This document shows, one piece after another, positions 1,974 through 23,633 of a DNA stretch of 64,000 nucleotides. A program made the position numbers and the translations under genes. Origin of the DNA: Patescibacteria group bacterium (GTDB lineage: Bacteria > Patescibacteriota > Minisyncoccia > Phycocordibacterales > Phycocordibacteraceae); assembly GCA_018971045.1 (NCBI GenBank), contig JAGWVF010000006.1:176-64175 (forward strand), written 5' to 3'. The notes under the pieces are model-generated. The model had not been told where the DNA came from. It searched no databases and saw nothing but the letters and a program-made list of their open reading frames with translations. The first letter of the stretch is position 1; the number at the start of each line of letters is the position of its first letter.

Positions 1974-4343
1974 ATGCAAAGCGGAATAACCAATGAAGAA
2001 GCGAGGGCGTATCTCGGCGCGCATGGCTACAACGAGATCGCAGAGCACAAGCCCTCATTGCTCGCGAAGTTGTCGAGACGCATCGTGTCGCCCATCAGCC
2101 TCATGCTCCTTGTCGCCGCCGTCCTTTCTTACGTCGAGGGGCAGGATTTCGACGGGAACTTCATTTTATTATTGCTCGCGCTTAATATCGCCGTTACGCT
2201 CTGGCAAGAGAAGAAGGCCGACACCGCCATTCAAGAATTAAATGCGCATCTTACCGCGGAGGTAAAAACCCTGCGCGACGGCGCATGGCAGAAGATCCCC
2301 GCCCGCCTTCTCGTGCCTCATGACGTTATCGAGTTGCGCGCGGGCGACGTCATACCGGCGGATACGTCAGTGCTCGAAGCGCACTCGGCTTCAGCGAATG
2401 AAGCGGCGCTTACCGGAGAATCCCTTCCGAAGGAAAAAAAGGCCGGAGACACTCTTTATTCCGGTTCTTTCGTCGCTTCAGGCATTATGACGGCGATGGT
2501 GTCGGCGACTGGCGGCGATACCTATTTCGGGAAAACGCTCGCCAAGATCGATACGGGTAATAAACGCAGTTCTCTTGAACGGCAGATATTGAGAATATCG
2601 CAGCTTCTCTCGTCGCTCGCGCTTCTCGCGGTACTCCTGTTGTCGGCGCTCCTCTGGCTTCGCCATACGCCGGTACTAGAAATCCTGCGCCTCGATCTCT
2701 CGCTCGTCATCGCGGGAATCCCCATCAGCCTCCCGACGGTCATGACGCTCATCATCGCGTTCGGAGTCATTGCACTCGCCAAAAAGGATGTAGTTGTTCG
2801 CCGCCTCTCGTCTCTCGAGGATCTCGCCGACACCGATTATCTGCTTACCGATAAAACCGGCACGTTAACCGAGAATAAGATTTCTGTCGGCGAGATCCTC
2901 GCCTATGGGCACCCCGAGGAGGAACTGCTTGGTCTCGCGGCCGCAGTCGCCGCAGAAGAGCCTGATTCGAGCATCAACCAGGCGATTCTCGCGAGAATGA
3001 AAGCGGCTCCAGTCACGCAGATCATATCCTTCGTACCCGGCGATTCAGACAGGAAGCGATCAACGCTGACGATGCAGACCGATGACGGCCCCGTCACGCT
3101 CTCTTTCGGCACGCCGCAAGTCATCATCGGACTTTCCAGCATCTCCGCTGAAAGGCGGAAGGAATTCGACGCCGACGTGAATGCGTTTGCGGAACGCGGA
3201 TACCGTTCACTGGCGCTTGCTCGGGTGCGAGGGGAGAGAGAATCGGATATGGAACTCCTCGGACTGATTGGACTCTCGGACACTCTGCGCGCTGACGCGA
3301 AGGACGCCATATCCTTTCTTGCGGACAACGGAGTCGGAGTCTCGATGGTTACGGGCGATAATCGCGCTATTGCAAAAGAAATAGCCGGTACGCTCTCCAT
3401 CCCCGGCGCCCGCATCGAAACGCCGGAAACGCGTCCGGCGGGCGGATGGGGGGCTCTCTCCAAGGATGCGTTTGAAGGCACTCAAGCGTTCGCCGAGATA
3501 CTTCCAGAGGACAAATACGAGCTTGTAAAATCCGCGAAACGCTTCTACACGGTCGCGGCGAATGGCGACGGAGTGAACGATCTTCCGGCCGTGAAAGAGG
3601 CGCATGTCGGCTTCGCGGTGAAGAATGCGGTTGACGCGCTCAAGGGCGCGGCCGACATCGTGCTCCTTTCAGACGGCATCGCGGTCATGCGGGACGCCTT
3701 CATCGAGGGGCGCAAGATTTTCATGCGTCTATACGCGTATTCCATATATCGGATCTCGGAAAGCTTCCGGCTCATCGTGACCATCGCGGTTCTCGGATTT
3801 TTTGTCGGCACCTATCCGCTCTCGCCGCTCCAGCTCATTCTCATCGCGCTTTTGAACGATATTCCCATCATCTCTCTCGGGGGAGATCGGGTTCAGATCG
3901 CGAATCGTCCGTCAAAGCTCAACGTCAAGGAGCAATTTTCCCTGAGCATCCTCTTCGGTCTGGTCGGCGTCGCGAACAGCCTCCTCCTCTATTTCGTTAC
4001 CTTCAATCTCCTGCACCTTCCGCTTCCGGTCGTGCAGACCATGTTTTTCCTGAAGCTGACCGTATCGGGGCACCTGCTCATCTATGTCGCGCACACGAAA
4101 GAGCGGTGGTGGCGCTATCTGCCGAGCGCGGCCGTCATCATCGCGACCCTCGTTACGCAGGTCATCGCGACCGTCTTAGCGGTGAGCGGGGCGCTCATGC
4201 CCGCCGCCATTCCTGTCAGCTTCGCGATCTTCGTCTGGATCTGGTCGCTGTGTTTCATGCAGATCAGCGAGCTGATAAAGATCGCGCGCCGGCCATTGCA
4301 AAATCAGCACGGTATCGGCCCGGGTTTTTACCAGAAAAGCTAA
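1974..4343 (+). CDS. cation-transporting P-type ATPase (Mg2+/H+-type)
   Basis: 789 aa; DKTGTLT phosphorylation motif, MVTGDN and GDGVNDLPAV motifs, multiple TM segments. Confidence 0.9.
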   Translation: MQSGITNEEARAYLGAHGYNEIAEHKPSLLAKLSRRIVSPISLMLLVAAVLSYVEGQDFDGNFILLLLALNIAVTLWQEKKADTAIQELNAHLTAEVKTLRDGAWQKIPARLLVPHDVIELRAGDVIPADTSVLEAHSASANEAALTGESLPKEKKAGDTLYSGSFVASGIMTAMVSATGGDTYFGKTLAKIDTGNKRSSLERQILRISQLLSSLALLAVLLLSALLWLRHTPVLEILRLDLSLVIAGIPISLPTVMTLIIAFGVIALAKKDVVVRRLSSLEDLADTDYLLTDKTGTLTENKISVGEILAYGHPEEELLGLAAAVAAEEPDSSINQAILARMKAAPVTQIISFVPGDSDRKRSTLTMQTDDGPVTLSFGTPQVIIGLSSISAERRKEFDADVNAFAERGYRSLALARVRGERESDMELLGLIGLSDTLRADAKDAISFLADNGVGVSMVTGDNRAIAKEIAGTLSIPGARIETPETRPAGGWGALSKDAFEGTQAFAEILPEDKYELVKSAKRFYTVAANGDGVNDLPAVKEAHVGFAVKNAVDALKGAADIVLLSDGIAVMRDAFIEGRKIFMRLYAYSIYRISESFRLIVTIAVLGFFVGTYPLSPLQLILIALLNDIPIISLGGDRVQIANRPSKLNVKEQFSLSILFGLVGVANSLLLYFVTFNLLHLPLPVVQTMFFLKLTVSGHLLIYVAHTKERWWRYLPSAAVIIATLVTQVIATVLAVSGALMPAAIPVSFAIFVWIWSLCFMQISELIKIARRPLQNQHGIGPGFYQKS

Positions 4344-4405
4344 CGTTGACTTAGCCGCCTATTTTCGGCATATTTACATTAGATTCAACAACCGAGGAGT
4401 CTACT

Positions 4406-9048: not shown

Positions 9049-9723
9049 ATGGCGATTTCTATAAAGAAAGCACGGATCCCTTTTTATCCTAATCTCAAGG
9101 ATAACCTGCACTGTTTTCAGTCTGCGCTGAAAATGGTTTTTGCTGTTTTTGAAAATAAATTTTATTCATATACATATCTTGATCAAATAACCGGATATAA
9201 AAAAAATAATTTGACTTGGGATACGACGGCGCTCTTATTTCTTGCAGAAAACGGCTATACGGTGATCAAAATTAGCACCTTTGATTACCCCGCCTTTGCT
9301 TCCGAAGGGACGAGCTACCTGAAGAAGTTCTGGCGCTCTGACGTGTATACAACACAGGCGAAGTTCTCAAATTTTCAGCGGGAACGACGGATCGTCACTC
9401 GACTTATTAAGGATAAGCGCATACGCCTTAAGATACGCAAGCCGACTCTCGCCCTTGTCTCCGCGTATCTTCAAGAGGGGTGGCTCGCAATAGCTCATAT
9501 TGATGTTTCCATTCTCGATAATACAAAGAATTACAGCCCCCATTCGATAGTCATTACTGACGTGCGGCCAACGCGGGTGTCGTTCCATGATCCGGGGCTT
9601 CCTCCCGAAGAAAATCGATCAGTATCCAGAAAGGCGTTTGATCAAGCACTCCGAATCGGAGAAGTCATTCTCATCAAGAAGCCCGGAGCTCTTAAAAAAC
9701 ATCTCTCGCATCGCGGGACATAA
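9049..9723 (+). CDS. hypothetical protein, possible papain-like/C39-like cysteine peptidase fold
   Basis: 224 aa, AT-rich; conserved-looking Cys (NLHCFQSAL) and His (HSIVITD) spaced as in C39-like/BtrH-N domains. Assignment by pattern only. Confidence 0.45.
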   Translation: MAISIKKARIPFYPNLKDNLHCFQSALKMVFAVFENKFYSYTYLDQITGYKKNNLTWDTTALLFLAENGYTVIKISTFDYPAFASEGTSYLKKFWRSDVYTTQAKFSNFQRERRIVTRLIKDKRIRLKIRKPTLALVSAYLQEGWLAIAHIDVSILDNTKNYSPHSIVITDVRPTRVSFHDPGLPPEENRSVSRKAFDQALRIGEVILIKKPGALKKHLSHRGT

Positions 9724-9760
9724 ACCGGAAAATGTCGAGAAAATCGTGACTGTTAATGGC

Positions 9761-10522
9761 ATGGAAATTACAGCACAATCCAAAAATATACGTGTATTTT
9801 TTGCGGGACGGTGGTCACCGGAACAAGTTTCTTTTTCCAAAATATCTTCCTCACGCATGCTCAATGAGGTTGTGGAAGAAAAAGCAAAACAATCGTGGCT
9901 CTCGCTCTTGGGAGAATCCGAGAAAGAGAAAAGTAAATTGTGGGATAGCACTATCTATCGATTTGAAAATGCGTTTCTTAGAGAAAATGCACTGGAGATT
10001 CAGGCATCTACCATTCCTTTTTCCATCCGACTTGGTTTGAATCAGCACACAAAATTAGTGCATCAACTTGGCGAAGCTTATGCGCCACGCGGCATGTTCA
10101 CCTCTTGTTTAGTGAAGACGAGTGACCATCATCTTCTTTTTATAAAGAAATCAAAACACTATTTCACTCCGAAGAAATACTCATGGGTGGGAGGAGTCCT
10201 TTCAAATAGTGAACAAGAAATTACCAATGGTATCGATTTCTTTAACACTATGAGAAATGAAATACGAGAAGAAGTCGGCAGTAGCGCTATATCATCTCTT
10301 GAACTTCGAATAGGTTATTTGACAGAAAACTGGAACGTCTGTTTTTTATTTGTTGCAGAACTAAATATCAATATGCCGCAACTTTATAGAGTATTTCGAG
10401 AAAACAATGATGGTGAAGCTGCAGATCTCGTTAGTTTTTCTATATCAGACATACAAAATCAGATTCATATTTTTGAACCGAAAGATCAAATAAAATTTGC
10501 ACTTCTTGGCCTTGTTTCGTAG
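9761..10522 (+). CDS. Nudix-like hydrolase (divergent Nudix box)
   Basis: C-terminal GGVLSNSEQE...RNEIREEVG resembles the Nudix box G-x5-E-x7-REUxEExGU with an insertion; ORF track start 9587 overlaps the upstream gene, so ATG at 9761 is preferred. Confidence 0.5.
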   Translation: MEITAQSKNIRVFFAGRWSPEQVSFSKISSSRMLNEVVEEKAKQSWLSLLGESEKEKSKLWDSTIYRFENAFLRENALEIQASTIPFSIRLGLNQHTKLVHQLGEAYAPRGMFTSCLVKTSDHHLLFIKKSKHYFTPKKYSWVGGVLSNSEQEITNGIDFFNTMRNEIREEVGSSAISSLELRIGYLTENWNVCFLFVAELNINMPQLYRVFRENNDGEAADLVSFSISDIQNQIHIFEPKDQIKFALLGLVS

Positions 10523-12611: not shown

Positions 12612-14165
12612 ATGCGTACCAGCCGCTTGCCGGCCCATACCGTGAGGAAGACTGCGGCACGGTCCCGCCCCTCCGCTGTTTCCGCCTCTTTCCTCGCAAA
12701 AGTGCATGTTAACGGAAGCGCCGACTGGCAACGATCGGACAAGAGCCACCTCCTCGCTCTTTTTAAAAAGATGGCGATCGGGATTCCGGCGTATCGGAAA
12801 TTTCTTCGCGAAAACGGGATACGCCGTGAAGCTGTAAAAACGATAGAAGACTTCTCCTCCGTTCCAGCGATAACAAAGCAGAACTATTTGCGGAAGTACT
12901 CTCCAGCCGAGCTTCTATGGAACGGCTCGACCTGTTCCGGACACGTTCTTACCTCGACCTCGGGCTCAACGGGGAAGCCCACCTACTTTGCCCGTTCTCA
13001 CGAGGTCGACGAGCACTCCTCTTTTATTCATGAACTCATTTTCCGTACCAGCTCTCTGAAGAAAGATAAGTCAACGCTCGTGATCGTCTGTTTCGGTATG
13101 GGGGTATGGATCGGCGGGCTTATTACCTATCAGGCGTTCGAGCTCATGGGCCGTCGAGGATACCCGATATCGATCCTCACGCCGGGCATAAATAAAGCCG
13201 AGATTCTGAAGGCGCTGACCGATTTGGCGCCGCAGTATGACCAAGTCATACTCGCGGGGTACCCCCCGTTTCTTAAAGACGTGATCGATGAAGCCCTCGC
13301 CCAGGGCTTTTCTTTTGCCAATCATCGCATGATGCTTCTTTTTGCCGCGGAGGCATTTACCGAAACGTTTCGAGAGTACCTCGCCAAGAAAGTCGGCATT
13401 GAGAATGTCCTTACCGATGCGATTAATATCTACGGAAGCGCCGATATCGGCTCGATGGCGTTTGAAACGCCGCTCTCCATCCTCGCGCGCCGTCTCGCGC
13501 TGAAAGACGAAAAATTATTTGCCGATATTTTCGGTAATACCACGAAGACTCCGACCTTTGCGCAATATGTTCCTGAATTCGTATCGTTTGAGGCGCCCAA
13601 CGGCGAGATCCTCATATCGGGAGATAGCGCTCTCCCGCTCCTTCGCTACTCGATCGGCGATCATGGCGGGGTATACACCTTCCGCGATCTTGTTGAACGA
13701 TACAAGGCACACGGAGTGGATCTGATGAAAGAGGCACAAGCCGCCGGTATCAGGAGACAAGTCTACGAATTGCCGTTCGTGTACGTCTTTGAGCGTATTG
13801 ATCTCGCCACGACTCTCTACGGACTGCAGGTGTATCCAGAAACTATCAAAGAGGTTTTACTCAATAAGCAATACGTCGACACTCTGACCGGCAAGCTCAC
13901 GCTCATTACGAAATACGACGATAATCAGGACCAGTATCTCGAGATCAATATCGAGCAGAAACCGAAGAAAGAGGTAAGCAAGGCGCTCGAGTCGGATCTG
14001 CTCGCGGAGATCGTGAAAGGCCTGCGCGAGAAGAACTCGGAATATCGCGAGCTTTCGAAATTTCTCGGGAAGCGCGCAGAACCGAAGCTCATCTTTTGGC
14101 CGTATGAGGACCCGCTTTATTTCAAACCGGGCACCAAACAGCCGTGGGTGGTGCGTCAGGCGTAA
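12612..14165 (+). CDS. adenylate-forming enzyme, phenylacetate-CoA ligase (PaaK)/F390-synthetase-like
   Basis: TSGSTGKPT AMP-binding motif; N-terminal region LLALFKKMAIGIPAYRKFLRENGI parallels the PaaK N-domain; alternative ATG at 12771. Confidence 0.7.
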   Translation: MRTSRLPAHTVRKTAARSRPSAVSASFLAKVHVNGSADWQRSDKSHLLALFKKMAIGIPAYRKFLRENGIRREAVKTIEDFSSVPAITKQNYLRKYSPAELLWNGSTCSGHVLTSTSGSTGKPTYFARSHEVDEHSSFIHELIFRTSSLKKDKSTLVIVCFGMGVWIGGLITYQAFELMGRRGYPISILTPGINKAEILKALTDLAPQYDQVILAGYPPFLKDVIDEALAQGFSFANHRMMLLFAAEAFTETFREYLAKKVGIENVLTDAINIYGSADIGSMAFETPLSILARRLALKDEKLFADIFGNTTKTPTFAQYVPEFVSFEAPNGEILISGDSALPLLRYSIGDHGGVYTFRDLVERYKAHGVDLMKEAQAAGIRRQVYELPFVYVFERIDLATTLYGLQVYPETIKEVLLNKQYVDTLTGKLTLITKYDDNQDQYLEINIEQKPKKEVSKALESDLLAEIVKGLREKNSEYRELSKFLGKRAEPKLIFWPYEDPLYFKPGTKQPWVVRQA

Positions 14166-14262
14166 AACAATCTTCACTACTTTCTGAATCTCTCTAATTT
14201 GCACGTATTTGAGCATCAAGGCGCCGTGCTTCTTCCCACGCCAGATCAAAAGTCTCCTTCAT
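14142..14262 (+). repeat. ~122-bp direct repeat copy 1 (spans convergent gene ends)
   Basis: ~96% identical to 16247-16368. Contains the last codons of the PaaK-like gene (+) and a 22-codon copy of the C-terminus of TrmB gene 16300-17046 (-), which ends with an in-frame stop after MKETFDLAWEEARRLDAQIRAN. Confidence 0.85.
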
Positions 14263-14438
14263 GTGTCTAACACATGAAATTCTGCTCTTGCATTTTCTGT
14301 AAAATGCATCATAATGGTAAACAGGTTATTGAGTAGTTTAAACAATCGATCTTTTGAAAGGAGACCGGAATATGGATTCTCATCTGAGAGTCGGTTCTAT
14401 CAGATTGCGCCCGCAGAAACAAGTTTATAATCAGTAAA

Positions 14439-16241
14439 ATGAATACAGCATACAGCATCGAAGATTTTCTAGAAGTAAAGTCTGCTGGAGGGGCGAGTTT
14501 TAGTCCTGATGGTACGCGGATTGCGTATCTGAGTAACACTACGGGGACATCCCAAATCTTTCTTTTACCCACTGAAGGAGGTGAATCTGAACAACTTACT
14601 GATTTCCAAGATTATGTCTCTTTCGCGCGATTCTCTCCGACCGAGAATATGCTCATATTTGGAAAGGCGGAAGGCGGGAATGAACAGACGCAGCTCTACC
14701 TGTTAGATATTAAGACTCGACAAATCACCAGCATCACGGCGAAGCCTGACGCGAGACATGATTTTGGCGGATGGTCTCCAGATGGGAAGAGCATCTGCTT
14801 CACCTCGAATGAAAGAAATGGAAAGGACTTCGATGTGTACGTAATGGACATCGCGACGCTTAAAAAACGTTGCGTCTTCGATAGGGGTGGGTGGTGTGTC
14901 GCTGAGGGATTTTCTCCACGGGGTACGTATGTTGTCGTACGAGAGAAGCGCTCAGCCGCGAACACTGACCAATACCTTTGCAATCTTAAGACAGGCGTTG
15001 TTGAACACATTACCCCCCACAAGGGAGACGCGTTTTATGCCGGATCATCATGGCTTCCCGATGAATCTGCCTTTTTTCTCATTCAGGATCAAGAAAGAGA
15101 ATTCGCAGGCCTCGCTCGCTATTCGCTTTCTGAAAGAAAATCTGACTACGTTCTTGCTCCGGATTGGGATGTCGAAGGAGTCGTCATAGACAGAGCTGGT
15201 AAGAATATAGCCGTCATCGTAAATGAAGGCGGGTATCAACGAATGACGATATATGATACCTCTCGATTCGAGGTTCGTTCTTGCCGTCTGTCGGCGGGTA
15301 ATGTCTATCAGGCAAGATTTTCCGAGAGCGGATTGCAAATTGCATTCAGCTTAGGAGACTCGCGCCGGACATCAGATGTTTGGATATTGGACTTAGAAAC
15401 AGGAGACTCGCGGCAGATCACACGCAGTTACCAGGGTGTCCCGCCAGAAGTCATGGTTGAGCCAGAACTCATCCAGTTTAAATCGTTCGATGGACTTCTA
15501 ATCCCGGCCTTCTCCTATAGACCGAAGGGAATAAAACGAGGGATGAGAGTCCCCGTGATTATCAATATTCACGGAGGTCCTGAGGCCCAATACCAGCCGG
15601 TATACCAGCCGGTGATACAGTACTTGGTGCACAGCAGTGGGTACGTAGTGGTTGCGCCGAATGTACGAGGCAGCTCCGGGTATGGGAAATCGTACATGGC
15701 ACTTGATAATGTGGAGAGGCGCCTAGATTCGGTGAAAGATATTGTTGCGTTACGTGATCACATTGTTGGGATATTTGAAGGGGACGCTACAGAAATTGCA
15801 TTATTCGGAGGAAGCTACGGAGGATTCATGGTGCTCGCATGTTTGGCATTCTATCCGAAGCTTTGGACAGCGGGGGTCGATGTTGTGGGCATCGTTAACT
15901 TTGTTACCTTTCTTGAAAACACGGCCGCGTATCGACGAGCCTTACGCGAGGCTGAATACGGCTCACTCGAAAACGATAGGGAGTTTTTGGAAAAAATATC
16001 CCCTATCCACTCGATTGAAAAGATAGAAGCGCCGCTGTTTGTCATCCATGGTGCAAATGATCCGAGAGTTCCGCTCTCCGAAGCAGAACAGGTGGTAGAA
16101 AGACTTAGGGGGGTCGGCAGGCATGTTGAATTGCTCGTCTATCCGGATGAGGGGCACGGAATCACGAAGCTTAAGAATAAGCTCGATGCATATCCAAGAG
16201 TGGTCGAATTCTTAACTGTCAACCTTGGACGTTCAGGATAA
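14439..16241 (+). CDS. S9 family serine peptidase (prolyl oligopeptidase/acylaminoacyl-peptidase type) with N-terminal beta-propeller
   Basis: 600 aa; TolB-like N-terminus, GGSYGG nucleophile elbow, C-terminal HGANDPRVP (catalytic Asp/His region); AT-rich relative to flanks. Confidence 0.85.
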   Translation: MNTAYSIEDFLEVKSAGGASFSPDGTRIAYLSNTTGTSQIFLLPTEGGESEQLTDFQDYVSFARFSPTENMLIFGKAEGGNEQTQLYLLDIKTRQITSITAKPDARHDFGGWSPDGKSICFTSNERNGKDFDVYVMDIATLKKRCVFDRGGWCVAEGFSPRGTYVVVREKRSAANTDQYLCNLKTGVVEHITPHKGDAFYAGSSWLPDESAFFLIQDQEREFAGLARYSLSERKSDYVLAPDWDVEGVVIDRAGKNIAVIVNEGGYQRMTIYDTSRFEVRSCRLSAGNVYQARFSESGLQIAFSLGDSRRTSDVWILDLETGDSRQITRSYQGVPPEVMVEPELIQFKSFDGLLIPAFSYRPKGIKRGMRVPVIINIHGGPEAQYQPVYQPVIQYLVHSSGYVVVAPNVRGSSGYGKSYMALDNVERRLDSVKDIVALRDHIVGIFEGDATEIALFGGSYGGFMVLACLAFYPKLWTAGVDVVGIVNFVTFLENTAAYRRALREAEYGSLENDREFLEKISPIHSIEKIEAPLFVIHGANDPRVPLSEAEQVVERLRGVGRHVELLVYPDEGHGITKLKNKLDAYPRVVEFLTVNLGRSG

Positions 16242-16246
16242 AACGT

Positions 16247-16368
16247 CCGTGGGTGGCGCGTCAGGCGTAAAACAATCTTCACTATATTTCTGAATCTCTC
16301 TAATTTGCACGTATTTGAGCATCAAGGCGCTGTGCTTCTTCCCACGCCAGATCAAAAGTCTCCTTCAT
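16247..16368 (+). repeat. ~122-bp direct repeat copy 2
   Basis: Matches 14142-14262; here the minus-strand reading is the genuine 3' end of the TrmB gene. Confidence 0.85.
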
Positions 16369-17046
16369 TATTTCAGCAAAATATGTATCCTCGATAATAA
16401 CGGCAAACTCCTCACGTCCGGACACGAGGACTATCTTATTGTCATAAATGCGAATATCCGAAGTGAAGTTGTATTGTTTAGCTGGTATGAGGCGAATAAA
16501 GGTTTCTCCCTGCGGCTGCGGCATCACCTTTCCCTTGTAAGGAGAAATAATCTGTACCACCTGTTCTTTCTTGCTATAAGAAATAGTGGGGATAACTGCG
16601 AAGGCCCGCACCGCCTCTCCGGACTTCATCATCGCAAGATCATGTACGGCTGTTTCGACGCCCTCCTTCCCCTCATAGAATTTTACTCTTGGATGAAACA
16701 TAAGTGCTGGAGATAGGGCAGTAAGTTCAGGAATAAGGTTATCAATATCTTGATGAATCTTTGCTTGCTTTTGCTCAATAGCCACAGCTTCTTTTAGAAG
16801 CGTGTCTGGATTAACGGCCTCATATATACTGACGCCTTTAGCATCTTCCGCTTTCTCTATAAGACCCTTGTTAATGAGCGATTCTAGAGCTACATATGTG
16901 GAACTCCTATTAATATCAGCTCTCTTTGAAAGAAGTTGAGCGGACAGCGCGCCAGACTCAATGGCAGTCAAGTAAACAATTGCTTCTCTTTCAGTCAAAC
17001 CAAACCCGATTAGCTGAGTAACGATGGTTTTGTCTGGAGATATCAT
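16300..17046 (-). CDS. TrmB family transcriptional regulator
   Basis: N-terminal HTH FGLTEREAIVYLTAIESGALSAQLLS... plus TrmB C-terminal domain. Confidence 0.75.
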   Translation of the reverse strand: MISPDKTIVTQLIGFGLTEREAIVYLTAIESGALSAQLLSKRADINRSSTYVALESLINKGLIEKAEDAKGVSIYEAVNPDTLLKEAVAIEQKQAKIHQDIDNLIPELTALSPALMFHPRVKFYEGKEGVETAVHDLAMMKSGEAVRAFAVIPTISYSKKEQVVQIISPYKGKVMPQPQGETFIRLIPAKQYNFTSDIRIYDNKIVLVSGREEFAVIIEDTYFAEIMKETFDLAWEEAQRLDAQIRAN

Positions 17047-17816
17047 ATTTTATCCACACGGTAGCGCCTGGCTTCTTGTTGAGCGAGGTCGAACGCAACC
17101 TTCATCACCTCAGCTATTTCCTTGCTTTGTATCGAAACAGCAAAGGCTGGGTTATGCGACATAAAGGCAACCTTATCGTCAAAGACGGCAAAATCAGAAG
17201 GAAATTTGAAACACTCGTCAGGTATCAGAGTGATTTCATCAAAATTCGTAGGAGTCTTTTTAATCATTTCTCGTGCCGCGTAATCATCAGGATGGATACC
17301 CCTCATCTTCAAACCTAGAGCCAGTCTGTCCCGCACGTAAATAGGCAGATAGTCTGGTAAGCTGTTAAAGATATTACTTACGGAGGAGAAAACGCGCATC
17401 ATCTTTTCTTTAGAAGCGAGAGTACTTTCAAACCCTTTTCTCAGACCCGCCGCTCCTTCAAGAACTTCTATTTTTGGTTTGAACCGAGAACTCTTATGTG
17501 CCGAACGAAGAGTAGGGGAGAGAGTCGCGAGATTCTGGAGCAAGAGCGTCGATTGCTCCAACTTCTCTTTTGCTGCAAGTGCCAAACGTTCAGGAGGGGC
17601 AGCCGCATATCGCCTCACGGGTTTCTCGTTCACTATGTTCACAAAACCCCGTTTCATTAGACGATCGAGTACAACATACATTGAGCTACGATTAACGCTT
17701 GTTTGATTCGAAATTTCCTGCACGGTTGCAGTCCCAGCGCTCAAAAGAGCTAAGTATACAGCCGCGTCCTTCTCGGGGAGGTCAAGTGCAGAGAGTCTTT
17801 TGGTGAGGGGTGTCAT
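17043..17816 (-). CDS. TrmB family transcriptional regulator (paralogue)
   Basis: HTH LPEKDAAVYLALLSAGTATVQEIS...; 4-bp overlap with downstream TrmB gene; start chosen at MTPLTKRL. Confidence 0.7.
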   Translation of the reverse strand: MTPLTKRLSALDLPEKDAAVYLALLSAGTATVQEISNQTSVNRSSMYVVLDRLMKRGFVNIVNEKPVRRYAAAPPERLALAAKEKLEQSTLLLQNLATLSPTLRSAHKSSRFKPKIEVLEGAAGLRKGFESTLASKEKMMRVFSSVSNIFNSLPDYLPIYVRDRLALGLKMRGIHPDDYAAREMIKKTPTNFDEITLIPDECFKFPSDFAVFDDKVAFMSHNPAFAVSIQSKEIAEVMKVAFDLAQQEARRYRVDKI

Positions 17817-17929
17817 GGGGTCCCAACAGCATAGAATCCAAATGGTTCGCGTGTTGTCAGATATTAGCAACAAATACCAGCAAGAGCAAATAAACCAGAA
17901 GCCTATGCGTGACGACTTGTGTACACATT

Positions 17930-17956
17930 TTCAACTCCGTTTTGAAGACGTTTCAA
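17930..17956. promoter_or_regulatory. overlapping inverted repeats TTCAA-N7-TTGAA-N5-TTCAA in divergent intergenic region
   Basis: Palindromic half-sites between the TrmB genes and the 18035 operon; plausible operator, not verified. Confidence 0.3.
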
Positions 17957-18034
17957 ATAGGTTGTTTTTCTTTGACAACATATCAAATCAACACAAACTG
18001 ATTCTTGTTATGAATTTACTAAGGCAGGAGAAAT

Positions 18035-18385
18035 ATGAGTAAAGAAGGTACGAACCCAAGATTTTCCTTTAGGAAGGACAGGTTTTTTCGTGACCGCGAA
18101 AGCTACGCTGAATGGTGGGCAATTGTGTGTCTTGGTTGTGCAGAAGAAGTATTACTCTATCAAAAAGACGGACATGGGAAACTATATCGCTGTTATTTAA
18201 ATCGCATTTTTGCTCCTGCAAAATATGCAGATCTCCAATATGACCAAACGATGACGATAAAGAAATTGCCGAATCTAACTTGTCCCCGATGCAACTTGCT
18301 CCTAGGCATACCAATGCTTCATTGGGAGGGAAGGCTTGCTTATCGATTGATAAAAGATCGCTGGGGAAAACGAAGGGAGAAGTAA
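18035..18385 (+). CDS. zinc-ribbon protein, hypothetical
   Basis: 116 aa with CLGC...CPRC cysteine pairs; first gene of tightly packed low-GC operon. Confidence 0.5.
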   Translation: MSKEGTNPRFSFRKDRFFRDRESYAEWWAIVCLGCAEEVLLYQKDGHGKLYRCYLNRIFAPAKYADLQYDQTMTIKKLPNLTCPRCNLLLGIPMLHWEGRLAYRLIKDRWGKRREK

Positions 18386-18389
18386 TTCG

Positions 18390-19109
18390 ATGAGTGGAAA
18401 TTATAAAAATACGGTGCAGATTGCACGGAAAACGCTTATCCCAAAGGAAAGGCGGGTGCAAGTCACTGAAGGGGAATTAAGTAAGTATTTACATGTCACA
18501 CGAAGAGGCGTTGGTCCGATTCATACGCCATACGGTTATTTTTGGCAATACGACTTTCATATCGACGATAAATGGGGAAAGTATTCTGTCCTAGTGCGTG
18601 CCCAAGTGGATAAAGAATACAATCCAATTTTTCTTAACAATGAACTATTACTACGCATAGATTCTGGCTGTGAGACGGGACAGCTGTTTCATGACAATAC
18701 CTGTGAGTGTCGTGAACAATTGCACGAGGCATTAAAGAAGATTAATGAACATGGAGAGGGTATGATTATACACGTACCTTCTCAGGATGGGCGTGGAGGC
18801 GGGTTGGCATTTAAACTAGCAACTCTTCTTCTAGAAAAAGACTTGGGATTGAACACGGTAGAGGCCGCTCGTATTCTTGCTAATAATGAGGAGATTGATC
18901 TCCGGACCTATGGAGGGGTTGTTGGCATTCTGAAATTTTTTAGAGCAAAGCGGAACATATTGCTCATGACAAACAATCCCCACAAAATCTCCACTCTCAA
19001 AGAGAATAGATACAAGATATTGCGTACATCCATTCTCATTCCCCCAACACGCTTTACCAAGAAGCATTTACGAGCAAAAAAGATAGAGCTCGGCCATCTC
19101 CTTCCATGA
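18390..19109 (+). CDS. GTP cyclohydrolase II (RibA)-like
   Basis: RIDSGCETGQLFHDNTCECREQL matches the RibA zinc-binding C-x-C region; DLRTYGG near C-terminus; SD GGGAGAAG upstream. Confidence 0.7.
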   Translation: MSGNYKNTVQIARKTLIPKERRVQVTEGELSKYLHVTRRGVGPIHTPYGYFWQYDFHIDDKWGKYSVLVRAQVDKEYNPIFLNNELLLRIDSGCETGQLFHDNTCECREQLHEALKKINEHGEGMIIHVPSQDGRGGGLAFKLATLLLEKDLGLNTVEAARILANNEEIDLRTYGGVVGILKFFRAKRNILLMTNNPHKISTLKENRYKILRTSILIPPTRFTKKHLRAKKIELGHLLP

Positions 19110-19906
19110 CAGAATGTCTCTCAATCTCACTTCGAGGGTTGTCTGCTTCCGGTAAGGGCACTATTGCGTCCCTGCTTGCAAAAGAGCTCAACATCCAGCA
19201 CGTAGATTGTGGGCAAATATTCAGGGCCATTGCACTGTATGTGCATGAACACCGAGTAAAAGGAATTGCCTCTTTCTTTAAGAAAGCAAAGATTCAGATA
19301 ACAAATCGAGATATTACAGTCGAGGGCAAAACGTATTTTCGTGAACAACTACAAACTGAGAATGTCGGTCGTCTCGCAACTGAATTGAGCCGAAAACACA
19401 GCGACAAGCTTGTATCGTTAATAAATGCTCTTCTCTCCACGATACCTCGAGTGATAGTTGATGGACGAAACGCGGGAATAGATATTCTTCCCAACCCCAA
19501 TTTTTCTTTTTTCCTTCAGACAAAATTGGAATCACGCGTGCAGCGACGATATAATCAAGAACGATCTAATGGAATAAAGGTCAGCGTTATAGATATTCTT
19601 CACAGTCTCTCTCACAGAGATGAGGTTGATAAAGAGCGGGATATCAGACTCGTTGAGCCCCAGCGACATGAGCGCACTGTTGTTACAGATGGGAAGACAC
19701 CACTGCAGTGTGTTAATGAAATCATAACTACAATCAATAAGACGAAATCACAAATATTTCTTTGGGTTGCGGTAGACAAACAAGGAAAATTCTTCACTTA
19801 CGAAGATGGAGCCGTAATTGTAGCGACTAAGAAAAGCAAAATTCCAATAAGGGTACGTGAATGCAAAGATTTCTCTATTATTCAGGTAATACTTAAGCCA
19901 GTATAG
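19106..19906 (+). CDS. cytidylate kinase (Cmk)-like P-loop kinase with C-terminal extension
   Basis: GLSASGKGT P-loop, VIVDGRNAG and RVQRRYNQ motifs of Cmk; 4-bp overlap with upstream gene; ~50 aa longer than typical Cmk. Confidence 0.65.
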   Translation: MTECLSISLRGLSASGKGTIASLLAKELNIQHVDCGQIFRAIALYVHEHRVKGIASFFKKAKIQITNRDITVEGKTYFREQLQTENVGRLATELSRKHSDKLVSLINALLSTIPRVIVDGRNAGIDILPNPNFSFFLQTKLESRVQRRYNQERSNGIKVSVIDILHSLSHRDEVDKERDIRLVEPQRHERTVVTDGKTPLQCVNEIITTINKTKSQIFLWVAVDKQGKFFTYEDGAVIVATKKSKIPIRVRECKDFSIIQVILKPV

Positions 19907-19980
19907 ATATGACCCATGTTCTGTGTAGCACCACATTGGCAGAGCTCATTCGAGCTGGGGCAATATGTTAGAATCGAGGG

Positions 19981-21000
19981 ATGACACCTCTGTCGGCGGA
20001 AGACTTCGGGAAAGGATTTCCATTTCAGAGAGATATTTCAGAACAAATTCGCTTCTTACTGACGGCTGCCGTACGAGCCCCCTCGACGCATAATTGCCAG
20101 CCATGGCGGTTTCGGGTTGAGAATAACCGCCTCCTTGTGTATCGCGATACACGCATCCGTCTCCCACAATCAGATCCGGAGAACCGCTATGCGCACATAA
20201 GTATTGGGTTTCTTCTGCACCATATCGATCTATTGGGGAAATGGCTTTCCATGGCCCCGCAAATTTCCCTTGTGAATGGGGATGAACACGTTGCAGAGAT
20301 TACATTTTCTCCAGCGACGAAGGCAGAGGAAATCCCACCACTTGTTGTAGCGATTTTTAAACGTCGAAATCGTCGCGGTGTGTTTGAGGACAAACCAATT
20401 TCTCAATCAATATTTGATGAGGCAACAAAGATGCAAATGCCATCTTTCATTCCTCCAGAGGTGAAGGTGGTTACCGATAGAGCAGCTCTGGCGAGCATTG
20501 CCGATGCAACTTCAGGCAATATGAAACGAGTCTATAAAAGGAGAGTGTTTCGTCGCGAGATGTCTTCATGGATTACGCCAAATAATTCAACACGCAAGGA
20601 TGGCATCCCAGGGTATTCGCTCAACCAGCCAACATTCATGAGCTGGATACTCCCGACCGTTATCCGATTGGTAAATATGGGGAAGGTATTAGCCAAGCTG
20701 AACAATGAGTCTATCGCTTCAGCGGCCGCGGCCTTTGGTTTTGGGGCTGAGGATTCTCCCTCTGGATGGCTCTCGGTCGGGTTTGCCGCTTCTCACACAG
20801 CATTAACGCTTGTCGCCCATAATATCGACTACTCCGTTTTTGTCGCCTCAATAGAATATGAGGACACTCGCAAGTCAGTTGGTGAGGTCTTTCGTCTCCA
20901 TCAGCCACTCGAGTTCCTCTTTGTTGCAGGGACATTCCCCGATGAAGTTGCGTGGATGACCCCACGAATATCGATCGAAGATAAACTAATACCATCATGA
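19981..21000 (+). CDS. tandem-domain nitroreductase family protein (Acg/SagB-type dehydrogenase-like)
   Basis: STHNCQPWRF hallmark; 339 aa length consistent with two fused nitroreductase-like domains. Confidence 0.75.
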   Translation: MTPLSAEDFGKGFPFQRDISEQIRFLLTAAVRAPSTHNCQPWRFRVENNRLLVYRDTRIRLPQSDPENRYAHISIGFLLHHIDLLGKWLSMAPQISLVNGDEHVAEITFSPATKAEEIPPLVVAIFKRRNRRGVFEDKPISQSIFDEATKMQMPSFIPPEVKVVTDRAALASIADATSGNMKRVYKRRVFRREMSSWITPNNSTRKDGIPGYSLNQPTFMSWILPTVIRLVNMGKVLAKLNNESIASAAAAFGFGAEDSPSGWLSVGFAASHTALTLVAHNIDYSVFVASIEYEDTRKSVGEVFRLHQPLEFLFVAGTFPDEVAWMTPRISIEDKLIPS

Positions 21001-22043
21001 AAAACGACTTCTCCGTTCGGATTTTTGATCCGCATCATGGGGATGATGCGGGTGAAATCGCAAAACTGCGTTCCGAGAACTACTTTTTTGTAGACACGTA
21101 TGACGAACAAATTGCGGAATTAATGGAGATACGCGATCCCGAATCGGTCGGAGGCACTCACAAACCGCTCACTGATGAGCCGGGCGAACGTATCGTCGAG
21201 TATCCGTGGCGCAAAACATTAGTGCGTATCGTAGGGCCTGAAGCATATCGTGAATTGCGTACTAATCGAAATCGGAACTTACTTACGCAGGAGGAGCAAA
21301 AGAAATTTGCTTCTGCGAACATCGGTTTCGCTGGCCTCAATGTGGGGAACCCGGGGGCAGTGTGCATTGCGCTTGAAGGTGGCGCGCACATAATGAAACT
21401 CGCTGATCTTGATGCGCTATCGGTAACGAATTTAAATCGTTTTCGTGCCGGACTTGCAGATCTTGGGCTCAATAAGGCGACACTTACTGCGCATCAGATT
21501 CTCGAGGTAGATCCTTATTACAAAATAGAATTGCACGAAAAAGGAATTACATCAGACACCGTCGAGCCATTTATCGCAGAGCCAAAGATAGATCTGCTCG
21601 TCGAAGAGATGGATGCGCTTCCTCTGAAAATAAAGATACGGGAAGTCGCGCGGAGTAAGGGTGTGCCCGTCATCATGGTGACCGGGAATGGAGAAGGAAT
21701 ATTGTTAGATGTCGAACGTTATGATCTAGAACCAGATCTGCCCATTCTTAATGATCTTTTGGAGACGCGAATAATTGATGCAGTTACGAAGCCGTCAGGT
21801 CCGCTCGCACCGCGTGAGAAAGTCGCTCTCGCGCGGGATTTCATGGGTACGAAATATTTGGACGCGCGCCTCCTCGATTCTTTTGGAGAATTCGGGAGCA
21901 AGCTTGCAGGCATCCCACAGCTCGCCGAATCGTCCTTCCTGCGTGGCGCCGCACTGTGTTATGCAGCAAAAGCGATTATACTCGGCCGACCACTCGCCTC
22001 CGGTCGATATGCATTTTCGTTCGAGAATTGTATGCAAAAATAA
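20997..22043 (+). CDS. E1-like (ThiF/MoeB/MccB-family) adenylyltransferase with ~95-aa N-terminal extension
   Basis: NIGFAGLNVGNPGAVCIALEGGAHIMKLADLDALSVTNLNR Rossmann/ATP-binding region of ThiF family; no CxxC zinc motifs; 4-bp overlap with nitroreductase gene. Confidence 0.7.
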   Translation: MKNDFSVRIFDPHHGDDAGEIAKLRSENYFFVDTYDEQIAELMEIRDPESVGGTHKPLTDEPGERIVEYPWRKTLVRIVGPEAYRELRTNRNRNLLTQEEQKKFASANIGFAGLNVGNPGAVCIALEGGAHIMKLADLDALSVTNLNRFRAGLADLGLNKATLTAHQILEVDPYYKIELHEKGITSDTVEPFIAEPKIDLLVEEMDALPLKIKIREVARSKGVPVIMVTGNGEGILLDVERYDLEPDLPILNDLLETRIIDAVTKPSGPLAPREKVALARDFMGTKYLDARLLDSFGEFGSKLAGIPQLAESSFLRGAALCYAAKAIILGRPLASGRYAFSFENCMQK

Positions 22044-22061
22044 GAGCGAAAAATAAACAAA

Positions 22062-23633
22062 ATGGAATCTTTCTTAAATACAGATCTTCTCTTGGTTGGC
22101 GTAGCGGTTGCAGGTGCAGGCACGCTCGGGTTCTCTATTTATTTCTCGGACACAAAGAATTCAACTTCGCGATCCTTTCTTCTCTTCGCAATCGTAAGTA
22201 TTTTTTGGAGCATTACAAATTTCGCGAGTGCACGAGCCACTGACCCAATTCTCTTACTCTGGCTTATTCGTCTGGTTCTATTTTTTGCGATATGGCATGC
22301 TTTTTCATTCTTCATACTCGCACAGCAATTCCCAGAACCAAAACCGATTCTTCAGAAAAAAGCCTTTCTTGGATTTTTGTCTTGGACGGCAATAATATCA
22401 ATCATTGCTCTCACCCCATTTGTTTATGAATCAGTAGTCACTATTGATTCGATGATTACAACAAAGACTGGTCCGGGTATTGCGTTATTTGGACTCTCGG
22501 TATTTTGGTTTGTTGGAGCAGGTATTTGGACACTTGCTCGAAAACTTTTTCGTTCAAAGGGAATAGAACGAAATCAAATGGAATTTGTCTTTACGGGTAT
22601 GATAATGACCTTCATCTTTCTCATTATCTTTAATTTTCTTTTTCCAGCACTTCTGAATATTTCGACCTTAGTTCCTTTTGGTGGTCTTTTTCTTCTACCG
22701 TTTATCGTAGGTACAGCTTATGCAATCCTGCGCTATCGTCTCTTTGATCTCCGTGTAGCTCTTTTTGGTTTACTGACGTTTATGCTTGCGACCGCAACAT
22801 TCTTTGATGTTATTTTGGCTAATTCCATAACTCTCGTTCTGTATCGTGTAGTCGAACTTTTGCTCGTACTCGTTGCAGGAATCTTGCTTATTCGAAATAT
22901 AATCCATGAATTTAGACTTGAGAAGGAGCTTCGGCAGACCAACGAACGCCAAGAGACGCTCATCCACTTCATCGGACACGAGGTCAAAGGGTTCTTGACC
23001 AAAGATATGGGAGTTTTCGCCGCACTGCTCGAGGGAGACTACGGCACCCTGCCGGAGGAGCTCAATCCGTTCGTGACGCAGGCGCTCGCGCAGACGCGCC
23101 AAGGGGCGGATTCGGTAGCGAACATATTGAAAGCCGCGAATTTGAAAAAAGGGACCGTAACCTATACCAAGGAGCCCTTCGACCTTAAAGAGGTCGTGGC
23201 GGCGGCGGTTGAAAAGGAGAAGCTGATCGCGGAGCGGAAGGGTCTCACGCTCTCGTTTACTGCCGACGAGGGAGGGTCGTACCGGATGGTCGGCGACAAG
23301 GCGCAGATAAACGACCACGTGATTAGAAATATTATCAGTAACGCCATCAACTACACCCCAACAGGATCCATCGCCGTCTCATTGAGGCGAGACGGAGAGA
23401 AAGTGGCGCTTGAAGTAAAGGACTCAGGTATCGGCATCACCGACGAGGATAAGAAGAAACTCTTCACCGAAGGCGGCCACGGGAAGGATTCGATAAAGAC
23501 GAACGTCCACTCGACCGGCTACGGCCTCTATATCGCGAAGCAGATCATCGAGGCGCACGGCGGCACGATCACTGCCTCGAGCGAGGGAGAAGGGAAGGGC
23601 GCGACGTTTGTAGTGAAGTTCCCTGCAGTCTAA
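22062..23633 (+). CDS. sensor histidine kinase with N-terminal multi-pass (7TM-like) membrane domain
   Basis: ~270 aa of TM helices, then HisKA (FIGHEVKGFL) and HATPase_c (G-x-G-L motifs, GTITASSEGEGKGATF). Confidence 0.8.
   Translation: MESFLNTDLLLVGVAVAGAGTLGFSIYFSDTKNSTSRSFLLFAIVSIFWSITNFASARATDPILLLWLIRLVLFFAIWHAFSFFILAQQFPEPKPILQKKAFLGFLSWTAIISIIALTPFVYESVVTIDSMITTKTGPGIALFGLSVFWFVGAGIWTLARKLFRSKGIERNQMEFVFTGMIMTFIFLIIFNFLFPALLNISTLVPFGGLFLLPFIVGTAYAILRYRLFDLRVALFGLLTFMLATATFFDVILANSITLVLYRVVELLLVLVAGILLIRNIIHEFRLEKELRQTNERQETLIHFIGHEVKGFLTKDMGVFAALLEGDYGTLPEELNPFVTQALAQTRQGADSVANILKAANLKKGTVTYTKEPFDLKEVVAAAVEKEKLIAERKGLTLSFTADEGGSYRMVGDKAQINDHVIRNIISNAINYTPTGSIAVSLRRDGEKVALEVKDSGIGITDEDKKKLFTEGGHGKDSIKTNVHSTGYGLYIAKQIIEAHGGTITASSEGEGKGATFVVKFPAV

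Follow-up and report, generated by a model that had tools for sequence, protein, structure and literature searches.

Duplicated gene ends around an S9 peptidase gene and the reshuffling of its gene cluster in a Patescibacteria group bacterium

Integrative elements such as phages and ICEs are bordered by direct repeats, attL and attR, that rebuild the 3' end of a tRNA or protein gene, and insertion sequences and transposons leave target-site duplications of fixed length, typically 2-15 bp and rarely up to ~30 bp, that arise from staggered cleavage; we know of no bacterial transposase or integrase that makes duplications of >100 bp. Homology-facilitated illegitimate recombination, originally described in Acinetobacter and Streptococcus, typically uses microhomologies of 3-10 nt. 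In bacteria, DNA is documented to integrate through a long homologous anchor at one end and illegitimate joining at the other (PMC3240628). Mosaic recombination at the cps locus of Neisseria meningitidis (PMC4943193) exemplifies cassette switching, in which homologous recombination in conserved flanking genes exchanges the alleles of a polymorphic locus such as that for capsule or O-antigen. Within the Patescibacteria, natural competence, with integration of DNA through homologous recombination, is known for Saccharibacteria (PMC10633639).

The locus compared here with these systems lies in a 64,000-nucleotide stretch of a Patescibacteria group bacterium (hereafter the window). A PaaK-like gene of the phenylacetate-CoA-ligase family (12612-14165, plus strand; an open reading frame with weak NCBIfam PaaK matches) is followed by a 176-nt spacer (14263-14438, plus strand), by a gene for an S9 (prolyl-oligopeptidase-family) peptidase with an N-terminal beta-propeller (14439-16241, plus strand; Pfam Peptidase_S9 at 1.5e-42, and PD40) and, on the minus strand, by two TrmB-family regulator genes recognized by Pfam TrmB, TrmB1 (T1; 16300-17046) and TrmB2 (T2; 17043-17873), which overlap by 4 nt as in an operon. 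Further on, NCBIfam matches and synteny identify plus-strand genes for an Acg-family nitroreductase (19981-21000), an Rv1355c-like ThiF (20997-22043) and a histidine kinase (22062-23633). PaaK-like homologues at 45-85% identity are present in all related loci, and the gene is the conserved left flank of a variable cluster, with nitroreductase, ThiF and histidine kinase (19981-23633) as its conserved core and right flank. The T1-T2 pair recurs in L085, L091, L092, L093 and L175; the closest T1 homologue, 67% identical, is that of L085.

The convergent PaaK/TrmB junction is present twice. The original prediction had placed ~122-bp direct repeats of ~96% identity around the S9 gene, and repeat search and pairwise alignment bear this out: copy 1 spans 14136-14262 (127 nt) and copy 2 16241-16368 (128 nt), and at ~96% identity they differ by four substitutions (AG/GT at 14140-41, T/C at 14152, C/T at 14225) and one 1-nt indel after 14179; over the narrower limits first proposed (14142-14262 and 16247-16368), identity is ~97.5%. 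The 19-mer CCGTGGGTGGTGCGTCAGG has 2 sites in the whole window, one per copy, where shuffled sequences lead one to expect 0. Each copy holds, as had been claimed, the 3' end and stop codon of the PaaK-like gene and the final 22 codons and stop of TrmB, which read on the minus strand; a spacer of 28-29 nt separates the two. Copy 1 carries the functional PaaK tail (KQPWVVRQA-stop), a 28-nt spacer and an orphan TrmB C-terminal fragment (MKETFDLAWEEARRLDAQIRAN-stop; 14194-14262, minus strand), 22 codons whose upstream gene body is absent; it had rightly been called dead, although its residues read EEARRLD and not EEAQRLD as first given. Copy 2 carries an orphan PaaK 3' remnant (16241-16270, plus strand; its first ~25 nt common to L090), a 29-nt spacer and the functional TrmB1 tail; the remnant reads KRPWVARQA-stop, so that the PWVVRQA ending ascribed to both copies holds for copy 1 only. 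The insert between the copies consists of the 176-nt spacer and the S9 gene and nothing else, and the repeats abut it directly, copy 1 ending at the spacer and copy 2 starting at the S9 stop codon. Within the repeats, nothing resembling a promoter or terminator was found, and an exact 24-mer of the junction has 0 matches in the JGI metagenomes.

Such a repeat could be an assembly artefact, produced when two strains are joined into a chimera or a repeat is resolved wrongly. The window belongs to a metagenome-assembled genome, Logan contigs built at short k stop at the repeat, and a strain with a different right-hand context exists. We consider an artefact very improbable: the copies differ from each other (at 5 positions), and in L001 and L090 the variants peculiar to each copy are connected with unique flanking sequence within 31-mers. 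Logan contig L001 independently covers the S9 3' end, copy 2, TrmB1 and TrmB2, and L090, from a different project, covers PaaK, copy 1, the spacer and S9; the copy-2-specific C at 16257 and the TA indel are absent from copy 1 and from L090. Contigs L002-L004 stop exactly k-1 bases beyond the indel that distinguishes the copies, which is where a k=31 graph should break at a genuine repeat. Both junctions having been independently assembled, we therefore do not regard the repeat pair as an artefact, which settles a concern raised with the original prediction.

The S9 gene had been described as AT-rich, which is true only relative to the PaaK-like gene (GC 0.485 vs 0.528). The window as a whole stands at 0.538, TrmB2 at 0.463, TrmB1 at 0.435 and the GTP cyclohydrolase II (GCH2) and cmk-like genes at about 0.42, and these values rule out S9 as compositionally foreign; the AT-rich part of the insert is the 176-nt spacer only (GC 0.364). 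In BLAST searches the spacer has L090 as its sole match. Its last ~20 nt before the S9 ATG are conserved with the S9 upstream regions of L175, L092 and L011; beyond these, no homology could be detected between it and the sequence separating T2 from S9 in relatives, and it lacks their small Cys/Gly ORF and conserved hairpin. A riboswitch or other structured RNA in spacer or repeat was rejected, as neither matches an Rfam family at E<=1 and no unusual fold was found in the spacer (fold z-score 0.25). S9 homologues are common across Paceibacteria and occur, at 68-79% identity, in PaaK/ThiF/nitroreductase/histidine-kinase clusters of related Paceibacteria.

Known mobile elements match the locus poorly. 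Pfam scans of neighbouring ORFs, together with precomputed Pfam annotation of the upstream genes of L002, revealed no transposase, integrase or recombinase gene near the locus, and the repeat search found no terminal inverted repeats at the insert ends. The repeats (127/128 nt, 4% diverged) fall outside the lengths of IS or transposon target-site duplications, and in L090 the junction-spacer-S9 unit is flanked by just ~25 nt of duplication. With no recombinase genes, no terminal inverted repeats and a repeat far too long, insertion by a transposon or integrase was rejected, as was an integron gene cassette, there being no palindromic element after S9, no significant spacer fold and no integrase. 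Like attL and attR, the repeats restore host-gene 3' ends (PaaK on the left, TrmB1 on the right); an integrative element was nonetheless discarded since the Pfam scans show no adjacent integrase. Unlike attL and attR, moreover, the repeats exceed typical core sites in length and are 4% diverged, the cargo is a single housekeeping-type cluster gene, and relatives show variable-length deletion remnants instead of a fixed att site; the differing lengths of the PaaK stubs of L012 and L085 argue against one. In the window and in L090 alike, the junction-spacer-S9 unit is flanked by the PaaK-tail 19-mer, and empty PaaK-ThiF-A and PaaK/TrmB junctions are seen in more distant genomes only.

A sister strain, L090, matches the window at 99.69% identity over 12727-16265, including copy 1 with its dead TrmB tail (identical except for one base, 14227), here with no TrmB gene nearby; it then leaves the window 25 nt into copy 2 and runs on into a native PaaK-ThiF-A spacer, so that no more than ~25 nt of PaaK tail separate S9 from a different gene set. 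L090 rejoins the window from 22938, inside the histidine-kinase gene, at 97.8% identity. These near-identical strains thus differ by a discrete swapped block with two breakpoints (16266-22937; blastn, gene table and identity table), which holds TrmB1, TrmB2, orf116, GTP cyclohydrolase II, a cmk-like gene, the Acg-type nitroreductase, ThiF-B and the 5' part of the histidine kinase in the window, and ThiF-A, nitroreductase-A, a methyltransferase and a different histidine-kinase 5' part in L090. A mismatch map also places a recombination breakpoint between the two strains within S9, in the interval 15632-15782: to its left there is 1 difference in ~2.9 kb, and to its right divergence is ~1.4-2.2%. 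The S9 3' third (1.4%) and the histidine-kinase segment (2.2%) are diverged to a similar level while PaaK to the 5' part of S9 is identical; therefore S9 at this site appears older than the split between window and L090, and recombination in the locus appears to be still ongoing.

More distant relatives show what the cluster looks like elsewhere. AT-PaaK bounds it on the left side and the histidine kinase on the right side, and both are conserved. Between them stand either ThiF-A/NR-A or NiR/ThiF-B, and the TrmB pair, S9, GCH2 or cmk may or may not accompany these. A plain PaaK-ThiF-A-NR-HK order is found in the nearest relatives by PaaK (81-85%), and PaaK-NiR-ThiF-B-HK in others. The locus is thus a hot spot of alternative gene contents between conserved flanks. 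The original prediction had proposed to see whether, in relatives lacking the peptidase, PaaK-like and TrmB genes abut with one copy of the repeat; relatives with a single such junction do exist (L085, L080, L175). In L175 and L176 the convergent PaaK-like gene and T1-T2 pair are followed by the Cys/Gly ORF with its hairpin, then S9, NiR, ThiF and HK; L091 and L092 have T1, T2, the ORF and S9 in the same arrangement, and L011 has PaaK, a TrmB fragment, a frameshifted ORF, S9 and, further on, ThiF-A. In the intact module (L175, L091, L092), S9 lies on the far side of T1-T2, in divergent orientation to TrmB2. Orphan pieces of the PaaK tail, different in length from that in the window, mark module boundaries in L085, where a chimera of ThiF-A and a PaaK C-terminus directly precedes T1, and in L012, where a decayed ~60-nt PaaK 3' copy precedes ThiF-A. 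No flanking repeats were found around S9 in L011, L012 and L069, and a candidate PaaK-tail remnant right after S9 in L011 (CCAGTGGGGTCAGG) was set aside, the match being too weak to use. Exact-protein look-ups of PaaK and TrmB1 returned only contigs that include S9 or break at the repeat, and no S9-less single-junction strain at >90% identity; a scan of the JGI metagenomes with an S9 profile added few closely related sequences and showed PaaK and TrmB in no further contexts.

On balance we favour, with some reserve, the view that both repeats descend from a single ancestral junction and came to lie in tandem when recombination joined two alleles of the cluster, which deletions then trimmed. 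Copy 1 is then best explained as the original PaaK/TrmB junction minus its TrmB pair, and copy 2 as having arrived with the second allele. The ancestor would have been L175-like, with PaaK facing T1 and T2, the small ORF and S9. In the lineage of L090 and the window, a stub of another PaaK gene (the last ~9 codons) would have come to follow S9, presumably what is left of a further copy of the cluster, in the manner of L012 and L085. An illegitimate deletion would then have taken T2, the small ORF and all of T1 but the 22 codons at its end, leaving copy 1 and the spacer before S9, which is the L090 state. Finally, the stretch of a closely related strain that runs from PaaK through T1, T2, orf116, GCH2, cmk, NiR and ThiF-B to HK may have recombined in, with a left crossover in the 19-25-nt PaaK stub after S9 and a right one inside the histidine-kinase gene; this would have placed a ~4% diverged junction (copy 2) and an intact T1-T2 pair downstream of S9. 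We infer the order and direction of these events and the short-homology crossover, as well as the deletion, since the spacer matches the relatives' T2-S9 region over ~20 nt only. As no S9-less single-junction strain is found at >90% identity, the parental alleles are modelled on more distant genomes, and the 96% identity of the copies implies that the deleted TrmB1 would have been nearly identical to the present one, pointing to a closely related donor or to gene conversion. Counting against this history are the left crossover homology of just 19-25 nt and the need for at least three events.

A single step would suffice if a ~2.1-kb circle, made up of PaaK tail, spacer, TrmB tail, the 176 nt and S9, had integrated by one homologous crossover of the Campbell type. 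Such a circle, excised for example by recombination between flanking repeats in another cell, would in the window lineage have gone into an S9-less genome at its PaaK/TrmB1 junction and in L090, through the PaaK tail alone, into a PaaK-ThiF-A genome; the repeats would be hybrid copies, similar to attL and attR and produced by homologous, not site-specific, recombination. This would yield exactly both architectures, the unit does stand in two right-hand contexts having only the PaaK tail in common, S9-less single junctions do occur in relatives, and the product is topologically identical to that of the favoured history. We nevertheless rate it as rather unlikely: a recently moved circle should be uniformly near-identical in the two strains and their PaaK genes should differ, and the opposite is seen (0 differences in PaaK; 7 substitutions and an indel in the S9 3' third and stub). 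It also leaves unexplained the dead TrmB tail within the unit and the place of S9 beside the TrmB pair in the canonical module, no evidence of a circular form was found, and the PaaK stubs that L012 and L085 carry, being of other lengths, favour decay by deletion over a fixed unit. Quite improbable is a bolder variant, in which the last ~19-25 nt of the PaaK-like gene (CCGTGGGTGGYGCGTCAGG) are a dedicated, reusable joining site and junction, spacer and S9 form an enzyme-less mobile cassette that might excise as a circle via its flanking repeats and re-integrate at any PaaK tail. If true, it would explain why near-identical strains have the cassette in two different right-hand contexts.

The original prediction itself, a linear S9 cassette (spacer plus ORF) put into the convergent junction with a long target-site duplication, fares poorly. 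Staggered breaks ~122-127 nt apart or gap-repair synthesis would have duplicated the junction, and the L090 arrangement would have followed by later replacement of the right-hand block. The repeats abutting the insert on both sides and a spacer without a homologue in relatives agree with it, but with neither a recombinase gene nor terminal inverted repeats, and with PaaK stubs of different lengths in other genomes, we think it quite improbable. S9 is, besides, a regular cluster member by TrmB genes (L175, L091, L092, L011), which would make its landing here a coincidence, and in L090 copy 1 is present together with the orphan TrmB tail, but of copy 2 there is the PaaK part alone.

The favoured history of joined alleles and deletion has its nearest parallels among known processes of cluster exchange, and the comparison indicates that an ordinary kind of event, rather than a new gene-insertion mechanism, probably left these repeats. 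As in capsule (cps) and O-antigen switching, alternative gene sets stand between conserved flanks, here PaaK and the histidine kinase, and an entire block distinguishes strains that are otherwise nearly identical, its breakpoints being sharp and one of them lying within a flanking gene. Unlike in those systems, one crossover would have used a 19-25-nt stub of a flank gene inside the locus, and the incoming allele would therefore have been added after S9, leaving a tandem 127-bp duplicate of the junction. A long anchor (the histidine-kinase gene) combined with an end of very short homology also recalls homology-facilitated illegitimate recombination, to which we liken the proposed crossover, although 19-25 nt of near-perfect identity exceed its typical microhomologies. 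Gene-end stubs and chimeric ORFs at boundaries (L085, L012 and the window) are likewise those of a merodiploid or tandem duplication followed by reductive deletion, except that the two copies here appear to come from different alleles or strains and not from one resident segment.

The locus thus offers a clean, strain-resolved example of gene-cluster reshuffling in uncultivated, reduced-genome Patescibacteria, in which one whole block takes the place of another while the flanks are conserved, and stubs of the flank genes remain, apparently to be reused as crossover points. It also cautions that long direct repeats duplicating gene ends around a "cargo" need not mean a transposition-like insertion. 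Independently of the repeats, two TrmB regulators, a small Cys/Gly-rich ORF with a hairpin and the S9 peptidase form a conserved module embedded in the PaaK-like/ThiF/nitroreductase/histidine-kinase clusters. To our knowledge this module has not been described before; it looks like a peptide-processing system, and it may be of more interest than the repeat itself.

The S9 peptidase gene (plus strand, 14439-16241) is flanked by two direct repeats of ~127 nt, copy 1 (14136-14262) and copy 2 (16241-16368), which repeat search and pairwise alignment found to differ by 4 substitutions and 1 single-base indel; the 19-mer at the core of the repeat has 2 sites only in the window, with 0 expected by chance. 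Each copy carries, on the plus strand, the PaaK-like gene's final 8-10 codons with their stop and, past a 28-29-nt spacer, the minus-strand 3' end of a TrmB-family gene, 22 codons plus stop. Copy 1 supplies the 3' end of the PaaK-like gene (plus strand, 12612-14165) and holds an orphan TrmB tail; copy 2 supplies the 3' end of TrmB1 (minus strand, 16300-17046) and holds an orphan PaaK tail, which starts at the S9 stop codon. Repeat search, alignment and ORFs confirm the original prediction of a two-copy junction holding a PaaK tail and 22 TrmB codons, and the TrmB tail of copy 1 is indeed a dead fragment, the real TrmB1 being completed by copy 2. The peptides quoted for it need amending: the actual residues of the dead tail are EEARRLD, and PWVVRQA, said to stand in both copies, reads PWVARQA in copy 2. 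The source of the window is a Patescibacteria MAG, and an assembly artefact as the source of the repeats is extremely improbable, given that both junctions are carried by independent contigs: Logan contig L001 runs from the S9 3' half through copy 2, with its specific variants, to TrmB1 and TrmB2, and L090, a sister-strain contig of a different project, runs from PaaK through copy 1 and the spacer to S9. Three further contigs (L002-L004) all end exactly 30 nt past the copy-specific indel, an obligatory branch point of a k=31 graph if the repeat is real. L001 itself begins at ~15621, just upstream of a 3-nt (CAG) indel at 15632-15634 that makes S9 600 aa long in the window and 599 aa in L090, a start that a mixture of strains in the source samples may explain.

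Relatives place the peptidase in a wider setting. S9 homologues of 68-79% identity are common in Paceibacteria and recurrent in these clusters and, to judge from gene order, S9 is a cluster member, normally on the far side of the TrmB pair. In L175 and L176 (PaaK 74%, S9 76%), PaaK is followed by the convergent TrmB1 and TrmB2, a small ORF, a hairpin, and then S9, nitroreductase and ThiF, all in PaaK orientation, and the histidine kinase; L091 and L092 share the module of reverse TrmB1-TrmB2, small ORF and forward S9; L011 (PaaK 78%) has PaaK, a convergent TrmB N-terminal fragment, a frameshifted small ORF and S9, with ThiF-A further on. L012 has PaaK and an N-terminally truncated S9 and, ~250 nt on, a decayed ~60-nt PaaK 3' copy (~9100-9155) abutting ThiF-A; the lineage-specific GTGCGGCCGTCAT is common to its PaaK tail and this decayed copy. 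These orders imply that a TrmB gene or remnant sits between PaaK and S9, exactly the position occupied in the window by the dead 22-codon tail.

The repeats lie in a cluster that is both modular and hypervariable. Across the PaaK-bearing loci in our homologue scan of 80 species-representative genomes, a frame of aminotransferase, PaaK-like gene and, further on, histidine kinase is kept, and inside it stand either ThiF-A and nitroreductase-A (L087, L089 and L177, which are nearest to the window in PaaK, with 81-85% identity) or an Acg-type nitroreductase and ThiF-B (L015, L017, L018 and others). The window has the latter set (19981-22043), though its PaaK type usually precedes the former, and carries S9, two TrmB genes, orf116, GTP cyclohydrolase II and a cmk-like gene as extras between PaaK and nitroreductase. 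The closest full context, L085 (PaaK 83%), has the window's layout without S9; in its slot between PaaK and TrmB1 lies a 187-aa chimeric ORF (9577-10140), its first ~105 aa from the N-terminus of ThiF-A and its last ~82 aa from the C-terminus of a second, divergent PaaK-like protein, with the PaaK tail convergent with TrmB1 and stopping 16-25 nt short of the TrmB1 end. This chimera is a deletion scar fusing two tandem cluster versions, showing that such versions can sit in tandem and then get pruned by illegitimate deletions. The low GC is a trait of the locus and not of S9 alone: the peptidase gene, described earlier as AT-rich, is not specially so (0.485, vs 0.528 in PaaK, 0.435 in TrmB1 and 0.42 in genes farther along), and the whole variable cluster (14200-23600) lies at 0.42-0.49, compared with a lower-AT average of 0.538 GC over the window. 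We also noted, a few kb downstream of plain ThiF-A-type clusters, a serine recombinase (L087, 9072-10543) and LAGLIDADG-type endonuclease genes (L089, 7307-7987; L177, 16303-16980); the genes checked between about 10.7 and 33 kb of the window include no counterpart.

The sister strain L090 matches window 12727-16265 at 99.69% identity, a stretch that takes in PaaK, copy 1 in full (orphan TrmB tail included), the spacer and S9, and reaches ~25 nt into copy 2. It then runs from CAGG into AGCGGTAG, followed after 24 nt by the ThiF-A start, which is the native PaaK-ThiF-A junction of L085, L087, L089 and L177; further right lie nitroreductase-A, a methyltransferase and the histidine kinase. The last is 62% identical overall in amino acids to its window counterpart (22062-23633) and 97.8% identical in DNA over the last 587 nt. 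Thus a block swap separates the strains, its left breakpoint in the 19-25-nt PaaK stub that follows S9 and its right one at ~22938 in the histidine-kinase gene, which in the window is mosaic relative to L090. No TrmB gene is found on the 8.2-kb L090 contig, though the TrmB tail is present, so the tail is not simply a by-product of S9 insertion beside TrmB1. Mapped mismatches number 0 in PaaK, 1 in copy 1 and 0 in S9 as far as 15631; beyond that point, the final third of the gene has the 3-nt indel and 6 substitutions, the stub 1 more, and the histidine-kinase segment 13 substitutions in 587 nt. Divergence of S9 and of the right-hand joint is therefore about equal to background, which suggests that S9 already occupied the site when the strains split; a later recombination event with an endpoint inside S9 would account for the identical part on the left.

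On balance, and with some reserve, we consider recombination between cluster versions combined with deletion the probable origin of both repeats. An arrangement like that of L175 would have supplied the original junction of PaaK and TrmB, now copy 1, and an illegitimate deletion would then have taken TrmB2, the small ORF and all of TrmB1 but its final 22 codons; the stub behind S9 would be what survives of the second PaaK in another cluster version, comparable to the remnants of L012 and L085. Copy 2, the intact TrmB pair and the genes to the right would come from a closely related strain of L085-type arrangement, joined by crossovers in the PaaK stub and the histidine-kinase gene, and the ~4% divergence between the copies would be that between alleles. 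We infer this order of events, and the parental alleles from more distant genomes. Work on Saccharibacteria documents both natural competence and homologous integration of DNA (PMC10633639), and integration anchored by one long homology, with the other end illegitimate, is a known process (PMC3240628). The weak points are the very short homology at the left crossover and, for the deletion step, the 176-nt spacer, in which only ~20 nt of the relatives' TrmB2-S9 intergenic region are conserved and their hairpin is absent. Campbell-type integration of a 2.1-kb circle bearing S9 and one junction copy would reproduce both the window and L090 in one step; it seems somewhat unlikely, as under it S9 should be uniformly identical between the strains and PaaK diverged, the reverse of the mismatch map, and the TrmB tail within the unit is left unexplained.

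The original prediction, S9 inserted into the PaaK/TrmB junction by a long target-site duplication or gap repair, fits repeats that abut the insert so tightly, and both copies are real; the insertion itself we judge quite improbable, since it has neither a known enzymology nor a recombinase to its credit and turns the association of S9, TrmB and PaaK in relatives into coincidence. The observation is thus confirmed and its interpretation only partly supported. We see equally little likelihood that the PaaK tail acts as a joining site that an enzyme-less S9 cassette can use repeatedly. The window repeats lack the defining features of transposon target-site duplications, and the S9 unit those of integron cassettes; a site-specific integrative element would need an adjacent integrase gene, and none lies among the neighbouring ORFs scanned. 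The closest analogue is allelic block replacement at polymorphic loci (capsule or O-antigen switching) together with tandem-duplication-then-deletion scars. The window repeats are a further instance of a known event type in a poorly studied phylum.

The small ORF between the TrmB pair and S9 is conserved, with a Cys/Gly/Ser-rich product (L175, ~4207-4400; L176, ~1913-2106; L091, ~6925-6590 on the minus strand; L092, within 1912-2360; L011, 7788-7960) and is missing from the window spacer. An example product is MKYVHELPWSSSSFPLNAGSGDSSGPGSGCDGDGSCGNGGEGVGCGH, followed by the stop; in L175 and L176 the Cys/Gly-rich product ends GCGH, and the hairpin conserved past the ORF is GGGCCGTTATC-loop-GATAACGGCCC. 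The product looks like a precursor peptide, a possible substrate for processing by the S9 peptidase. Upstream of TrmB2, an element at ~17950-17985 is 89% identical over 36 nt to L093 7059-7094, in the equivalent position, has a weak match in L091 and may serve the TrmB pair as operator or promoter. A second S9-family gene in the window (29954-31869) is apparently split into two ORFs, one of 476 aa (29954-31384) without a Pfam match and one (31348-31869) with the C-terminal part of Peptidase_S9, and extra truncated S9-like genes lie near the clusters of L091 (15101-16105) and L175 (10572-11459).
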